DNA of 11,149 bases, taken from UHGV virus genome UHGV-0098625. The stretch is one strand, 5' to 3'. The translations under genes were made by a program, and so were the position numbers. Under the pieces are notes generated by a model. The model saw only the letters and a list, made by a program, of their open reading frames with translations. It was not told the origin of the DNA and did no database searches. Below, piece after piece: positions 2,991-7,839 of this stretch; the first letter of the stretch is position 1, and each line of letters starts with the position of its first letter. This stretch comes from a virus.

Positions 2991-3287
2991 TTATACCTCT
3001 GAATCAATATCAGCCTGATGGTGAGCAATGGTTTCAACTATGTACCGGATGTGTTCTGCCATGCGCTCCTGAAACTCAACATCGTCATCAAACGCACGGG
3101 TAATGGCTTTTTTGCTGGCCCCGTGGCGTTGCAAATGATCGATGCATAGCGATTCAAACAGGTGCTGGGGCAGGCCTTTTTCCATGTCGTCTGCCAGTTC
3201 TGCCTCTTTCTCTTCACGGGCGATCTGCTGGTAGTGACGCGCCCAGCTCTGAGCCTCAAGACGATCCTGAATGTAATAAGCGTTCAT
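2991..3287 (-). CDS. gam: Gam, RecBCD inhibitor (98-aa short form)
   Basis: ORF track. [94 protein letters not shown] matches lambda GamS. The upstream frame closes at a stop (3342..3344) with no in-frame ATG, so no long form is encoded. Confidence 0.95.
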
Positions 3288-3362
3288 GGCTGAACTCCTG
3301 AAAATGGCTGTGAAAATATCGCCCGCGAAATGCCAGGCTGATTAGGAAAACAGGAAAGGGGG

Positions 3363-3506: not shown

Positions 3507-3639
3507 TTTTTGGGACTCCTGGCTGATTAAGTATGTCGATAAGGCGTTTCCATCCGTCACGTAATTTACGGGTGATTCGTTCAAGTAAAGATTCGGAAGG
3601 GCAGCCAGCAACAGGCCACCCTGCAATGGCATATTGCAT
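3475..3639 (-). CDS. cIII: CIII, FtsH protease inhibitor that stabilises CII, 54 aa
   Basis: Absent from the ORF track (too short). Hand translation from the ATG at 3639 gives [54 protein letters not shown], stop at 3475..3477, AGGAG RBS upstream. Matches lambda CIII and overlaps the kil start in another frame, as in lambda. Confidence 0.9.
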   Translation of the reverse strand: MQYAIAGWPVAGCPSESLLERITRKLRDGWKRLIDILNQPGVPKNGSNNYGYPD

Positions 3640-3711
3640 GGTGTGCTCCTTATTTATACATAACGAAAAACGCCTCGAGTGAAGCGTAATTGGTATGCGG
3701 TAACGCCGCGC

Positions 3712-4080
3712 TCAGGCGGCCTTGATAGTCATATCATCTGAATCAAATATTCCTGATGTATCGATATCGGTAATTCTTATTCCTTCACTACCATCCATTG
3801 GAGGCCATCCTTCCTGACCATTTCCATCATTCCAGTCGAACTCACACACAACACCATATGCATTTAAGTCGCTTGAAATTGCTATAAGCAGAGCATGTTG
3901 CGCCAGCATGATTAATACAGCATTTAATACAGAGCCGTGTTTATTGAGTCGGTATTCAGAGTCTGACCAGAAATTATTAATCTGGTGAAGTTTTTCCTCT
4001 GTCATTACGTCATGGTCAATTTCAATTTCTATTGATGCTTTCCAGTCGTAATCAATGATGTATTTTTTGATGTTTGACAT
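3712..4080 (-). CDS. ea10: Ea10-like protein (lambda ea10/ssb position), 122 aa
   Basis: ORF track. Size, position between cIII and the N-proximal insert, and sequence (MSNIKKYIIDYDWKASIEIEIDHDVMTEEKLHQINNFWSDSEY...) fit lambda Ea10 as I recall it. GAGGAT RBS upstream of the ATG at 4080. Confidence 0.8.
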   Translation of the reverse strand: MSNIKKYIIDYDWKASIEIEIDHDVMTEEKLHQINNFWSDSEYRLNKHGSVLNAVLIMLAQHALLIAISSDLNAYGVVCEFDWNDGNGQEGWPPMDGSEGIRITDIDTSGIFDSDDMTIKAA

Positions 4081-4100
4081 CTATTCATATCCTCATAGAT

Positions 4101-4126
4101 AAAAAATCGCCCTCACACTGGAGGGC
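4101..4126 (-). terminator. intrinsic terminator in the pL operon (tL2-like), just upstream of ea10
   Basis: Plus-strand gccctc-acactg-gagggc at 4109..4126 preceded by aaaaaatc at 4101..4108. On the minus strand this is a GC-rich 6-bp stem followed by GATTTTTTAT. Confidence 0.55.
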
Positions 4127-4232
4127 AAAGAAGATTTCCAATAATCAGAACAAGTCGGCTCCTGTTTAGTTACGAGCGACATTGCTCAGTGTATTCACTC
4201 GTTGGAATGAATACACAGTGCTTATTCGCAGC

Positions 4233-4559
4233 CTACATAATCATTCCGGTTATTATTACCATTTCAATATCACTATCTTTCATAATGATTGGAGTTGAGT
4301 TATCAACTTTACTTTTACTCCATTTTCCTGCATCAGTTTTTACCGCTCCACAATAAGAAAGCCAATCATCATCACAATGTTCTGGAACACTAATTCTGAC
4401 AAGAACTCGTGATAGTGCTTTTTCGATACTTTCATCGCAATTAGCATTTGTGTAATTGCCGTGAGACAATTTCAAATCGTTAACTTCATCTTCATTGGCA
4501 TCAAAAATATAGATTTCAGTCGACTCTGGAACATTTTCATAAACCATTAAAACTTTCAT
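4233..4559 (-). CDS. hypothetical acidic protein, 108 aa (the track's 129-aa ORF begins at an upstream ATG at 4622)
   Basis: ORF track 4233..4622. Preferred start is the ATG at 4559 (MKVLMVYENVPESTEIY...), with GGGG 5 nt upstream and no overlap with the preceding gene. Rich in D/E; AT-rich DNA. No family recognised. Confidence 0.55.
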   Translation of the reverse strand: MKVLMVYENVPESTEIYIFDANEDEVNDLKLSHGNYTNANCDESIEKALSRVLVRISVPEHCDDDWLSYCGAVKTDAGKWSKSKVDNSTPIIMKDSDIEMVIITGMIM

Positions 4560-4606
4560 TTTTACCCCATATTGTTTATGCCAAAAATAAAGGCCGACTA
4601 TGCGTC

Positions 4607-5077
4607 CTAGTAGAATACCCAATTTTCTGTTTCTTGGTTGTGTCCAAAGTTATATTCAATATCTGGTGTTGATGTATCAATATTCTTCATCCCATCAACA
4701 AGAGTTGATACAACAGCCAAATCTTGTTTGATTCTCATTAAATGGTATTTCTTCCGGCGCAATAAACTTTCAATGGCAAGTTTCTTCGTTGGGAATGCAA
4801 AAGATCTTTCTGCATTTTTTGCTACTTTCTTAATTGCATATCTATTTCTCCTTTGTTTCCATTCCTGTAACCACTGATTTGGTACTGGTTTAAAATTAAC
4901 AATCCAATGCGCAGGAACCAACCATGCATAATGGTCTGTCTGATGAAAAGCTATATATTGAAGTGCGAATATTTTTATCCCATCTTCTTCAACTGTCGCC
5001 TGGAATCTCCAGAAAACAGGCATTCCATCATGTTCAGTTTCTGATTCAGGAAAAGGTACGCTCCATGATTTTGTCAT
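4607..5077 (-). CDS. hypothetical protein, 156 aa (basic C-terminal half)
   Basis: ORF track. GAGGTGA RBS immediately upstream of the ATG at 5077. AT-rich DNA. No family recognised. Confidence 0.6.
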   Translation of the reverse strand: MTKSWSVPFPESETEHDGMPVFWRFQATVEEDGIKIFALQYIAFHQTDHYAWLVPAHWIVNFKPVPNQWLQEWKQRRNRYAIKKVAKNAERSFAFPTKKLAIESLLRRKKYHLMRIKQDLAVVSTLVDGMKNIDTSTPDIEYNFGHNQETENWVFY

Positions 5078-5131
5078 ATCTCACCTCAAATAAGTGGTTT
5101 GCTGCGAAAATAAATCCGCTTAAGTTACCTG

Positions 5132-5269
5132 TTATTTATCCCACCAAGTTCCGCATCTATCTATCCAGTTACACCAATCATCGACACTCCATTTTGTTGT
5201 GTCGCATTTTGGCAACTGGCATGAATATCTACCTTCTTTGTAAAGTCGGCGTTTGACTGTCTTGAGCAT
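5132..5269 (-). CDS. putative small Cys/Trp-rich protein, 45 aa
   Basis: Absent from the ORF track. ATG at 5269 preceded by GAGGTGAG, which overlaps the N stop. Hand translation: MLKTVKRRLYKEGRYSCQLPKCDTTKWSVDDWCNWIDRCGTWWDK, stop at 5132..5134. Cysteines at 17, 22, 33, 39 and six Trp. Confidence 0.4.
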   Translation of the reverse strand: MLKTVKRRLYKEGRYSCQLPKCDTTKWSVDDWCNWIDRCGTWWDK

Positions 5270-5277
5270 GGCTCACC

Positions 5278-5610
5278 TCAATCGTAATAAGCTGGAATTG
5301 ATTTTCCGCGTTGCTTCTGGCGGCCTGAGCAAGTCACACCCATTTCACTGCGTGGCTTGCTGTACCATGTGCGCTGATTCTTGCGCTCAATACGCTGCAG
5401 GTTGCTTTCAATCTGTTCGTGGTATTCAGCCAGCACTGTAAGGTCTATCGGATTCAGTGCGCTTTCTACTCGTGATTTCGGTTTGCGATTCAGCGAGAGA
5501 ATAGGGCGGTTAACTGGTTTTGCGCTTACCCCAACCAACAGGGGATTTGCTGCTTTCCATTGAGCCTGTTTCTCTGCGCGACGTTCGCGGCGGCGTGTTT
5601 GTGCATCCAT
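5278..5610 (-). CDS. N: antitermination protein N, 110 aa
   Basis: ORF track. MDAQTRRRERRAEKQAQWKAANPLLVGVSAKPVNRPILSLNRKPKSRVESALNPIDLTVLAEYH.QIESNLQRIERKNQRTWYSKP matches lambda N (arginine-rich N-terminal motif); the C-terminal roughly 25 residues diverge. AGGAG RBS upstream of the ATG at 5610. Confidence 0.93.
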   Translation of the reverse strand: MDAQTRRRERRAEKQAQWKAANPLLVGVSAKPVNRPILSLNRKPKSRVESALNPIDLTVLAEYHEQIESNLQRIERKNQRTWYSKPRSEMGVTCSGRQKQRGKSIPAYYD

Positions 5611-5808
5611 CTGGATTCTCCTGTCAGTTAGCTTTGGTGATTGGATGGCCGGCGCTGAACCCCGGCTTACTGGTTAGAGCGCCCGCACTACCAGTGACGC
5701 TGTCTTGAGGCGCAGATTGGTTACTGCTTGCCATGAGCGCTGTTTATACATTGGTCGAGCATCAGCCTGCTCATTCATCCAATCCCAAAGCCTTCTGCTT
5801 TGAATGCT

Positions 5809-5878: not shown

Positions 5879-5941
5879 AGTATCACCGCCAGTGGTATTT
5901 ATGTCAACACCGCCAGAGATAATTTATCACCGCAGATGGTT
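5879..5941 (-). promoter_or_regulatory. pL promoter with operators OL1, OL2, OL3
   Basis: OL1 tatcaccgccagtggta 5881..5897, OL2 caacaccgccagagata 5905..5921 and OL3 tatcaccgcagatggtt 5925..5941 are identical to lambda OL sites as recalled. Minus-strand -35 TTGACA (5907..5902) and -10 GATACT (5884..5879) with 17-bp spacing. Confidence 0.9.
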
Positions 5942-6090: not shown

Positions 6091-6120
6091 GCAAAGAAAA
6101 CCCGGCGCAGATGCCGGGTT
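6091..6120 (-). terminator. intrinsic terminator downstream of the rex-slot gene (timm-like)
   Basis: Minus-strand RNA AACCCGGC-AUCUGC-GCCGGGUU followed by UUCUUUG. On the plus strand the same hairpin is followed by GUGGUGG, so it is unidirectional. Confidence 0.7.
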
Positions 6121-6130
6121 GTGGTGGAGA

Positions 6131-7036
6131 TCAATGCTTATTTGGGAGTGCTGGTTTTTTTATCGACTCTAATAGCTCGGAGGCGTTACTAATCTTTTTG
6201 TTCCCAAGGTAATTTGGCAGTTTTTCCATTGCGTAATTATCGTGTAGCCATTTTCTGAACACGCCAAGTGCCTCAATAGGATAAATCCAAGCTGTTATAT
6301 GCTTATTTGCAGCTGACTGCCTGTAATTTTCGGGGAATAAATGTGGGTACTGCACCCTTTCCCCGAATTTCTCAGATAGCCCATTAGCTGTCCAATACTT
6401 TCCCCAGTGAATTCCAACACTTCCATCCAAAGATGTGGTGTCATCCATTGGGAATCCTCCTCCGATCAGGTTCATGGCAATGTCAGCTATCTCTCTGAAT
6501 ACTGCAAAATGAGTTGTCGGTATCTGATCGTTTAGCTTAATCCTTGCTCTATAGTTCTCGAATGAGATATCTATTGAAGCATTTGGGTTGTAATTTGACT
6601 TTTCATAAATCATTCGCTTAAGCGTGTACTCAGCCAAGCGAACAAAATTACCTATTGCGACTGACCTATCAAAATTGGTGGCATCTAGAGCGTAGTAACG
6701 GAGGATAGCCATGCAAACATAGTCAGGATAAGCATGAGTTTCCACGTTTGAGCTATTTAAAACGCGAGTGTATAGCTTTTCGACGTTATGAAACCCTTTC
6801 TCAGCTAAATACGCAGCTACTTTTTGACCTCTGGGTTTGTTTTTCTCTGTGTTCCAGTTTGATGTGAACACCCTCAGTGGCGTGTCATCAATGCCGCATA
6901 ACTTTGCGAGACCGTAGAGAGTTAGGTAAGGAGTTCCATCATTGAGAACGCCCATAGGAATATCATCAGAAACAACCTCTACTACAGGGAAAAGCTGCAT
7001 TTGATGCAGGGATTCGCTATTGCTGTTAATCGACAT
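6131..7036 (-). CDS. hypothetical 301-aa protein in the rexA/rexB position; candidate phage-exclusion / abortive-infection protein
   Basis: ORF track. ATG at 7036 with AAGGAAA RBS; lies 86 nt downstream of the cI stop on the same strand and is followed by the terminator at 6091..6120. AT-rich relative to cI, N and exo/bet. The N-terminal segment (LFPVVEVVSDDIPMGVLNDGTPYLTLYGLAKLCGID) resembles KilA-N/Bro-N-type domains by eye. Function inferred from position only. Confidence 0.85.
   Translation of the reverse strand: MSINSNSESLHQMQLFPVVEVVSDDIPMGVLNDGTPYLTLYGLAKLCGIDDTPLRVFTSNWNTEKNKPRGQKVAAYLAEKGFHNVEKLYTRVLNSSNVETHAYPDYVCMAILRYYALDATNFDRSVAIGNFVRLAEYTLKRMIYEKSNYNPNASIDISFENYRARIKLNDQIPTTHFAVFREIADIAMNLIGGGFPMDDTTSLDGSVGIHWGKYWTANGLSEKFGERVQYPHLFPENYRQSAANKHITAWIYPIEALGVFRKWLHDNYAMEKLPNYLGNKKISNASELLESIKKPALPNKH

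Positions 7037-7122: not shown

Positions 7123-7839
<717 letters not shown>

Follow-up and report, generated by a model that had tools for sequence, protein, structure and literature searches.

Three small genes of the lambda ral/sieB slot as separate early accessory cassettes in the virus genome UHGV-0098625

The window considered here is an 11,149-nucleotide stretch of the virus genome UHGV-0098625 that comprises a lambda-type immunity and early region, and its main subject is a run of three small open reading frames (ORFs), termed orf45, orf156 and orf108 after the lengths of their products in amino acids (aa), which lie on the minus strand between the antiterminator gene N and ea10. An earlier note, made from the sequence alone, had placed three ORFs in this interval, at the coordinates now listed in Table 1, and had viewed them as a single insert in the ral/sieB slot; the ORFs and their location stand, while the single insert does not, as the three genes assort independently. 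With a probability of roughly 0.55, we consider orf45, orf156 and orf108 to be three independent accessory genes of early lytic growth that each act by themselves on a target in the host, and orf108 to be the strongest candidate for a counter-defence function. According to this proposal, the three cassettes would have replaced sieB-orf28-ral in the hypervariable slot that extends from N to ea10 or cIII in the early-left operon, and pL would be the sole promoter for all three genes, which would be read during lytic growth or upon induction on one unbroken length of transcript shared with N. Each product, small, soluble and made early, would bind a host component and then neutralise or redirect it, and the orf108 product, a compact acidic alpha/beta protein with an invariant polar cluster (H-G-x-Y-x-N / P-E / T-G), would inhibit a host defence or nucleic-acid-handling protein.

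A clean substitution in the lambda backbone

Comparison of the window with lambda (blastn against NC_001416) defines the replaced segment exactly. Window positions 5639..5354 align with lambda 35389..35104 at 99.0% DNA identity and positions 4221..3600 with lambda 34045..33424 at 98.6% identity; therefore, the intervening 5353..4222 (1,132 bp) is a clean substitution of lambda 35103..34046 (1,058 bp), a segment that in the lambda record holds the C-terminus of N, sieB, orf28 and ral. The assignment of the block to the ral/sieB slot is thereby borne out. The upstream junction of the mosaic, at ~5353/5354, falls inside N at about codon 86, such that residues 1-85 are lambda-type and the replaced segment takes in the last ~25 codons. 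In many E. coli prophages, orf45 is preceded by another N-like protein, of 101 aa, whose C-terminus shares 78% identity with the C-terminal module of this N protein.

The block was correctly described as AT-rich: G+C content is 36.1% across 4233..5269 versus 46.5% for the window, with third-codon-position values of 29% for orf156 and 24% for orf108; the block is foreign cargo of unknown function. Other occupants of the N-proximal slot in E. coli prophages include Ral, SieB, P22 GP17, a 322-aa hypothetical protein and an Nmad5-family nucleotide-modification protein, in agreement with the view that this slot elsewhere carries anti-restriction and exclusion genes. The Nmad5 example comes from an E. 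coli prophage (NZ_CP185938.1 3328701-3330216), where the slot cargo is annotated 'Nmad5 family putative nucleotide modification protein'.

Independent assortment of the three genes

At a coverage of at least 80%, the segment 4080..5290 is present in no record among 50,697 phage records and 5,426 complete E. coli genomes, and the individual genes have distributions of their own. DNA of orf156 occurs in 598 of the 5,426 complete E. coli genomes and that of orf108 in 16, a ratio of about 37. As the sole gene of the interval, orf156 lies between N and ea10 in 933W and between N and cIII in HK97. In most E. coli contexts orf156 is found together with orf45, the two being separated by an 87-aa gene in strain SCU-124. 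An identical orf108 protein is recorded in 785 blocks of the assembly collection, and orf108 is situated 40 nt downstream of Ral in five of the six distinct contexts shown (one context standing for 18 further contigs); in contexts L005 and L016 it follows unrelated hypothetical genes. The full order orf45-orf156-orf108 recurs identically in L020, L030 and L031, with a different downstream backbone, and the orf108 relatives of virulent phages have no orf156 neighbour.

Alignment also delimits the orf108 cassette, which extends from ~4597, 38 nt upstream of the ATG, to ~4225 and keeps its boundaries whichever of three different genes precedes it; it begins at GCCTTTATTTTTGGCATAAACAATATGGGGTAAAAATG and ends a few bases past the stop codon. 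Immediately after the ral stop codon, lambda carries 30 nt (34059..34087) that are 93% identical to the spacer upstream of orf108 (window 4572..4601). Where lambda has the order Ral-[no orf108]-ea10, strain CFSAN061770 has Ral-orf108-ea10, and the comparison suggests that lambda descended from, or recombined with, a Ral-orf108 arrangement that lost orf108.

From these sequence comparisons, the block is best read as two or three independently acquired single-gene accessory cassettes and not as one module. The distribution and the cassette boundaries together therefore refute an obligate effector-inhibitor pair of orf156 and orf108, a pairing that the earlier note had raised from the charges of the two products: one gene is about 37 times commoner than the other in complete E. 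coli genomes, and orf108 normally follows Ral.

Transcription and translation signals

All three ORFs are co-oriented with pL. Internal promoter scans gave fewer hits than in shuffled sequences, none of them placed to drive the block, and no terminator was found between the N stop codon (5278) and 4128 by a terminator scan or by a more lenient scan for a hairpin plus U-tract. We infer that the three genes would be silent in the lysogen and expressed along with N as soon as lytic growth begins.

The hairpin and the intrinsic terminator downstream of orf108 (Table 1) both exist as had been noted, but they belong to the lambda backbone, in the stretch of 98.6% identity, and not to the end of the block. 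The hairpin is invariant in lambda, 933W, L013, L005 and L031, whatever the upstream gene; it may act in RNA processing or RNA stability or mark a boundary of recombination. The terminator, which is conserved across contexts and is the first terminator-like site downstream of N, has its lambda equivalent at about 33952..33931; the site at lambda ~33931 we take, provisionally, to be the tL2 cluster of Luk and Szybalski. The possibility that the two elements together form a cassette end was considered and rejected, as they lie within lambda-identical backbone and are present in 933W without orf108.

An identical ribosome-binding-site context had been claimed for orf45 and orf156. The exact shared string is a 10-mer, TTGAGGTGAG, located 2 nt before each ATG (5281..5272 for orf45 and 5089..5080 for orf156), but the base that precedes it differs (A versus T). 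This 10-mer was rejected as a signature of duplication, being mostly Shine-Dalgarno consensus and within chance expectation: with one mismatch allowed, 28 of 200 shuffles reach two matches. The shared context is best regarded as two strong ribosome-binding sites that provide no evidence of duplication. The orf45 ATG lies 8 nt past the N stop codon, which itself falls within the orf45 Shine-Dalgarno sequence, and orf45 is probably translationally coupled to N. As for orf108, a program-made ORF list starts this third ORF at a TTG at 4622, giving 129 aa; 108 aa is the correct length, because all 41 of 41 homologues begin at the methionine of MK(V/I)L.

The three protein families

By homology, orf45, orf156 and orf108 are real genes that belong to catalogued families without known function. 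The profile searches proposed in the earlier note as a check yielded a family for each (PF17583, PHROG 1636 and PHROG 4658), though none of known function. No family was assigned to any of the three proteins by the defence-protein hidden Markov models of PADLOC-DB 2.0 at E-values up to 1, and none matched the Pfam models for Ral (PF11058) or SieB at E-values up to 1, which upholds the description of the ORFs as unrelated to Ral and SieB. NCBIfam likewise gave no match for orf45, orf156 or orf108. A tblastn search with Ral, in a database from which the window is absent, found Ral in lambda, L004, L012-L015 and L017. None of the three proteins has a membrane segment, the maximal Kyte-Doolittle values over 19 residues being -0.74, 0.56 and 1.10 against a membrane-like cut-off of about 1.6.

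The product of orf108 matches PHROG 4658 over residues 1-108 (E=3.3e-38). Among 41 aligned homologues, which range from 18 to 81% in identity, N38 and G105 are invariant and belong to a set of nearly invariant polar or turn residues that also includes P11, E12, H33, Y36 and T104. The protein is acidic, as the earlier note had it (isoelectric point (pI) 4.42), and acidity is a property of the family, with a pI below 5 in 95% of relatives and a median net charge of -11. AlphaFold2 modelling from the 41-sequence alignment gave a predicted local distance difference test (pLDDT) score of 94.9 and a predicted template modelling (pTM) score of 0.86, for a topology of two N-terminal strands, three helices and a C-terminal strand. 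A fold search with this model returned no PDB match, and in BFVD the significant matches were uncharacterised phage proteins only; as modelled, the fold is apparently unprecedented. A diverged paralogue of ea10 and a relative of orf156 were both considered as origins for orf108 and rejected (hhalign probability 0.2% for both).

Relatives of orf108 are found in 105-161 virulent phage records, distributed among Jedunavirus, Krischvirus, Pseudotevenvirus, other Straboviridae and Stephanstirmvirinae. All are annotated as hypothetical, and no named T4 homologue was found. In the two T4-like genomes examined, those of Yersinia phage JC221 and Citrobacter phage Margaery, the relative is located in the early accessory stretch that runs from rIIB-ndd to the holin gene. 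In Klebsiella phage vB_KpM_FBKp34 (L009), an orf108-family gene at 3001..3333 lies inside a tellurite-resistance-like cluster (TerC, a TerF-like vWA protein, two TerD and TelA).

The orf156 product is 98.1% identical to HK97 Gp45 and 98.7% identical to the 933W copy, annotated L0079, and it matches PHROG 1636 (phrog_1636) at positions 1-156 of 156 (E=2.2e-111). Copies at 95% identity or more are carried by ~80 phage records, mostly of Shiga toxin (Stx) phages, and full-length homologues down to 55% identity occur in Pectobacterium, Brenneria and Rosenbergiella. A library of 1.84 billion proteins contains 84 relatives, and an exhaustive profile search finds about 70 more distantly related ones of 130-155 aa. 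The basic C-terminal half ascribed to this protein is only partly so: residues 71-125 are basic (16 K/R versus 4 D/E, pI 11.1), but the last 31 residues are acidic (pI 4.05). The overall layout is thus an N-terminal beta domain, a strongly basic and conserved helical centre, and an acidic tail. Sixty-five relatives retain an N-terminal beta-hairpin ending in (H/R)-E-T, a central strand-helix K(R/K)(I/V)xK..SRFAFxTKxxAxxxLxxRKxxQ and the acidic tail, and the centre is basic in every one of them, with a median net charge of +9 and a minimum of +5.

No member of the orf156 family has a Pfam match, the PHROGs concerned are of unknown function, a profile search of PDB sequences was empty, and PADLOC gave no match for orf156. 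A structure prediction from a 19-sequence alignment reached a pLDDT of 56, too poor for a fold search. Full-text literature searches turned up no reported function for any member of the HK97 Gp45 / 933W L0079 family. The most probable ligand of the orf156 protein is nucleic acid or an acidic protein of the host. The distant relatives, on IMG/VR contigs, have SSB, NinG, DUF1376, DUF1367, methylase, KilA-N and integrase genes as neighbours, an early or replication region of temperate phages; these neighbours were found with a sub-alignment and indicate only a general early/replication context.

The orf45 peptide passes the Pfam model DUF5484 (PF17583) with 47.4 bits against a gathering cut-off of 27 (E=1.5e-12, profile positions 3-41 of 43) and matches phrog_1871 (E=4e-22). 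Searched by tblastn, it has hits in 891 phage records, 881 of them at less than 60% identity and nearly all T4-like, including T2 gene 55.4; DUF5484 is present in about 880 T-even-type genomes. The gene 55.4 product (gp55.4) of T2 has been reported among early-to-middle transcripts (PMC13001434). With 4 Cys and 5 Trp, the peptide is Cys/Trp-rich, as had been observed. The four Cys of lambdoid orf45 are absent from T-even gp55.4; since they are missing in T2 gp55.4, a metal site is no feature of the family. A zinc ribbon was rejected on these grounds, one Cys also being absent from the Bas106 copy.

Weighing the alternatives

A more specific joint proposal can be advanced, if only tentatively. 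It holds that orf108 represents a structurally unprecedented family of acidic inhibitors that would act on an immune or nucleic-acid-processing target through a site formed by H33, Y36, N38, E12 and T104, and that is carried by temperate lambdoid and P22-like phages, typically just downstream of ral, as well as by virulent phages; orf156 would be an early nucleic-acid-binding factor of host takeover.

Several points weigh against the reading of the three genes as independent counter-defence or host-takeover functions. No homologue is characterised, and there is no PADLOC, Pfam-function, NCBIfam or PDB match. A search of supplementary files from the accessory-gene screen by Silas et al. (PMC12373910), a screen that includes ral and abc1, did not find the three sequences either. 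The adjacency of orf108 to Ral may be mere linkage in a recombination hotspot. Sequence scans may miss Rho-dependent termination and weak internal promoters. The nucleic-acid-binding reading of orf156 is an argument from charge only, its structure model being unreliable at a pLDDT of 56, and the location of its distant relatives among replication and nin-type genes would fit DNA metabolism or regulation equally well.

This last point bears on the best-surviving alternative, namely, that the three genes have housekeeping or regulatory early functions in transcription, replication, recombination or the lysis-lysogeny decision that are unrelated to host immunity. We regard it as possible, though doubtful. 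The genes are embedded in the pL operon, with N on one side and cIII, kil, gam, bet and exo on the other, orf45 is probably coupled to N in translation, and orf156 has a conserved basic helical region and distant relatives among SSB, NinG, DUF1376, methylase and integrase genes; furthermore, many characterised small early phage proteins, for example lambda Kil and CIII, modulate host physiology. However, the genes are dispensable on a population scale, since they are missing from lambda, P22 and many further lambdoid phages, and they readily trade places with anti-restriction and exclusion genes, a behaviour typical of accessory and not of core regulatory functions.

Prophage-expressed defence or superinfection exclusion, in which the three genes would replace SieB in function, be active in the lysogen, and block incoming phages or abort their infection, was among the earlier suggestions and now appears unlikely. 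The block does replace sieB in the same slot, its low G+C content is typical of moron-like cargo, and the rex slot of this prophage is already occupied by a defence gene, BstA. Against this, PADLOC returned no matches, a consensus scan found no credible internal promoter for genes co-oriented with the cI-repressed pL, and the three proteins lack membrane segments (maximal 19-residue Kyte-Doolittle value at most 1.10). In addition, the orf45 and orf108 families have most of their members in obligately virulent phages, which do not lysogenise their hosts, and this distribution favours early lytic host takeover or counter-defence over prophage exclusion.

Highly improbable, finally, is a two-component effector/inhibitor or toxin/antitoxin-like pair of basic orf156 and acidic orf108: although the two are adjacent, with opposite net charges, a 47-nt spacer and the same orf45-orf156-orf108 order in at least three further contigs, their profiles are unrelated, the counts of 598 versus 16 E. 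coli genomes and the lack of any place that covers at least 80% of the block speak against it, orf156 is found by itself in 933W, in HK97 and in the ~80 phage records cited above, and orf108 lies behind Ral or other genes in most contexts and without an orf156 neighbour in virulent phages.

Layout of the window

The features of the window are collected in Table 1. The sequence at the promoter reads as lambda pL/nutL, and the ea10 product is 100% identical to lambda Ea10 at the protein level. Beyond ea10, the minus strand continues with cIII, kil, gam, bet and exo, and the right side of the window carries cII, O and a gene for a DnaB-like helicase. Directly downstream of cI and upstream of pL, a 301-aa gene that has no Pfam match encodes the BstA abortive-infection defence protein, and a terminator-like hairpin is located 3' of it at 6120..6099.

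Table 1. Coordinates of features in the 11,149-nucleotide window
Feature	Position	Strand	Basis or remark
cI	7836..7123	minus	HTH_3 + Peptidase_S24
BstA gene, 301 aa, rexAB slot between cI and pL	6131..7036	minus	PADLOC PDLC02356, E=1.3e-105
pL promoter, TTGACA-17-GATACT	5879..5907	minus	Promoter scan, 10/12 matches; drives N and the three ORFs
Antiterminator N, 110 aa	5278..5610	minus	Pfam N36, E=1.6e-26
orf45, 45 aa	5269..5132	minus	DUF5484
orf156, 156 aa	5077..4607	minus	HK97 Gp45 / 933W L0079 homologue
orf108, 108 aa	4559..4233	minus	PHROG 4658
Hairpin, 12-bp perfect stem, 4-nt loop, no U-run	4189..4216	minus	RNAfold dG -15.4; lambda about 34040..34013
Intrinsic terminator, 8-bp G+C-rich stem 4128..4107 + U-run	4099..4128	minus	dG -12.9
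ea10 (DUF2528), downstream backbone gene	3712..4080	minus	Pfam PF10800, E=1.8e-47

Prior record and significance

The slot, the mosaicism of this slot and the three ORFs had all been catalogued before, and the label 'novel' attached to the block does not apply: HK97 Gp45 and 933W L0079 are annotated in public records, and orf45 belongs to a Pfam domain of unknown function. A search of the full-text literature for DUF5484, L0079/933W, HK97 gp45 and six protein accessions yielded nothing relevant, and the phage L genome paper states of most early-left-operon genes that their 'functions are not known' (PMC8022706). What is new is the exact map of the lambda replacement, the composite nature of the block, the Ral-orf108 linkage, the links between a lambdoid slot and T-even-type accessory genes, and the apparently unprecedented orf108 fold.

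The lambdoid slot between N and cIII is a natural exchange point for genes of counter-defence and exclusion, most of whose cargo is still unannotated. The arrangement in separate cassettes means that the genes are to be studied singly, and not as an operon or as a toxin/antidote pair. Many Shiga-toxin phages carry orf156, as do about one in nine (about 11%) of complete E. coli genomes, so that any function it has would bear on the prophage biology of enterohaemorrhagic E. coli (EHEC). For anti-defence work, orf108 is a well-justified target given its confident model without a PDB analogue, its conserved acidity, its habitual adjacency to ral and its presence in many virulent phages.

Comparison with known systems

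The closest counterpart of the block is the Ral/SieB region of lambda, which has the same genomic position, flanks that are 98.6-99% identical and small accessory genes read from pL. The lambda slot is known for anti-restriction (Ral) and exclusion (SieB), and a functional analogy of the three proteins is putative; they match neither the Ral nor the SieB Pfam model and have no membrane segment. The orf108 product also invites comparison with the DNA mimics Ocr, ArdA and Arn, as it is small, conservedly acidic, encoded in early accessory regions and usually located beside the anti-restriction gene ral, although its model bears no structural resemblance to a solved mimic. The orf45 peptide and T2 gp55.4 are 55% identical and share the core PK.DTTKWSV.DW..ID..G.W, but their settings differ, orf45 following N in the window and gp55.4 being encoded in the accessory run from nrdH to 55. 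Finally, orf156 and its counterparts in HK97 (Gp45) and 933W (L0079) occupy the same place, directly downstream of N; in those phages the gene stands alone, before cIII in HK97 and before ea10 in 933W, whereas here it lies between orf45 and orf108.

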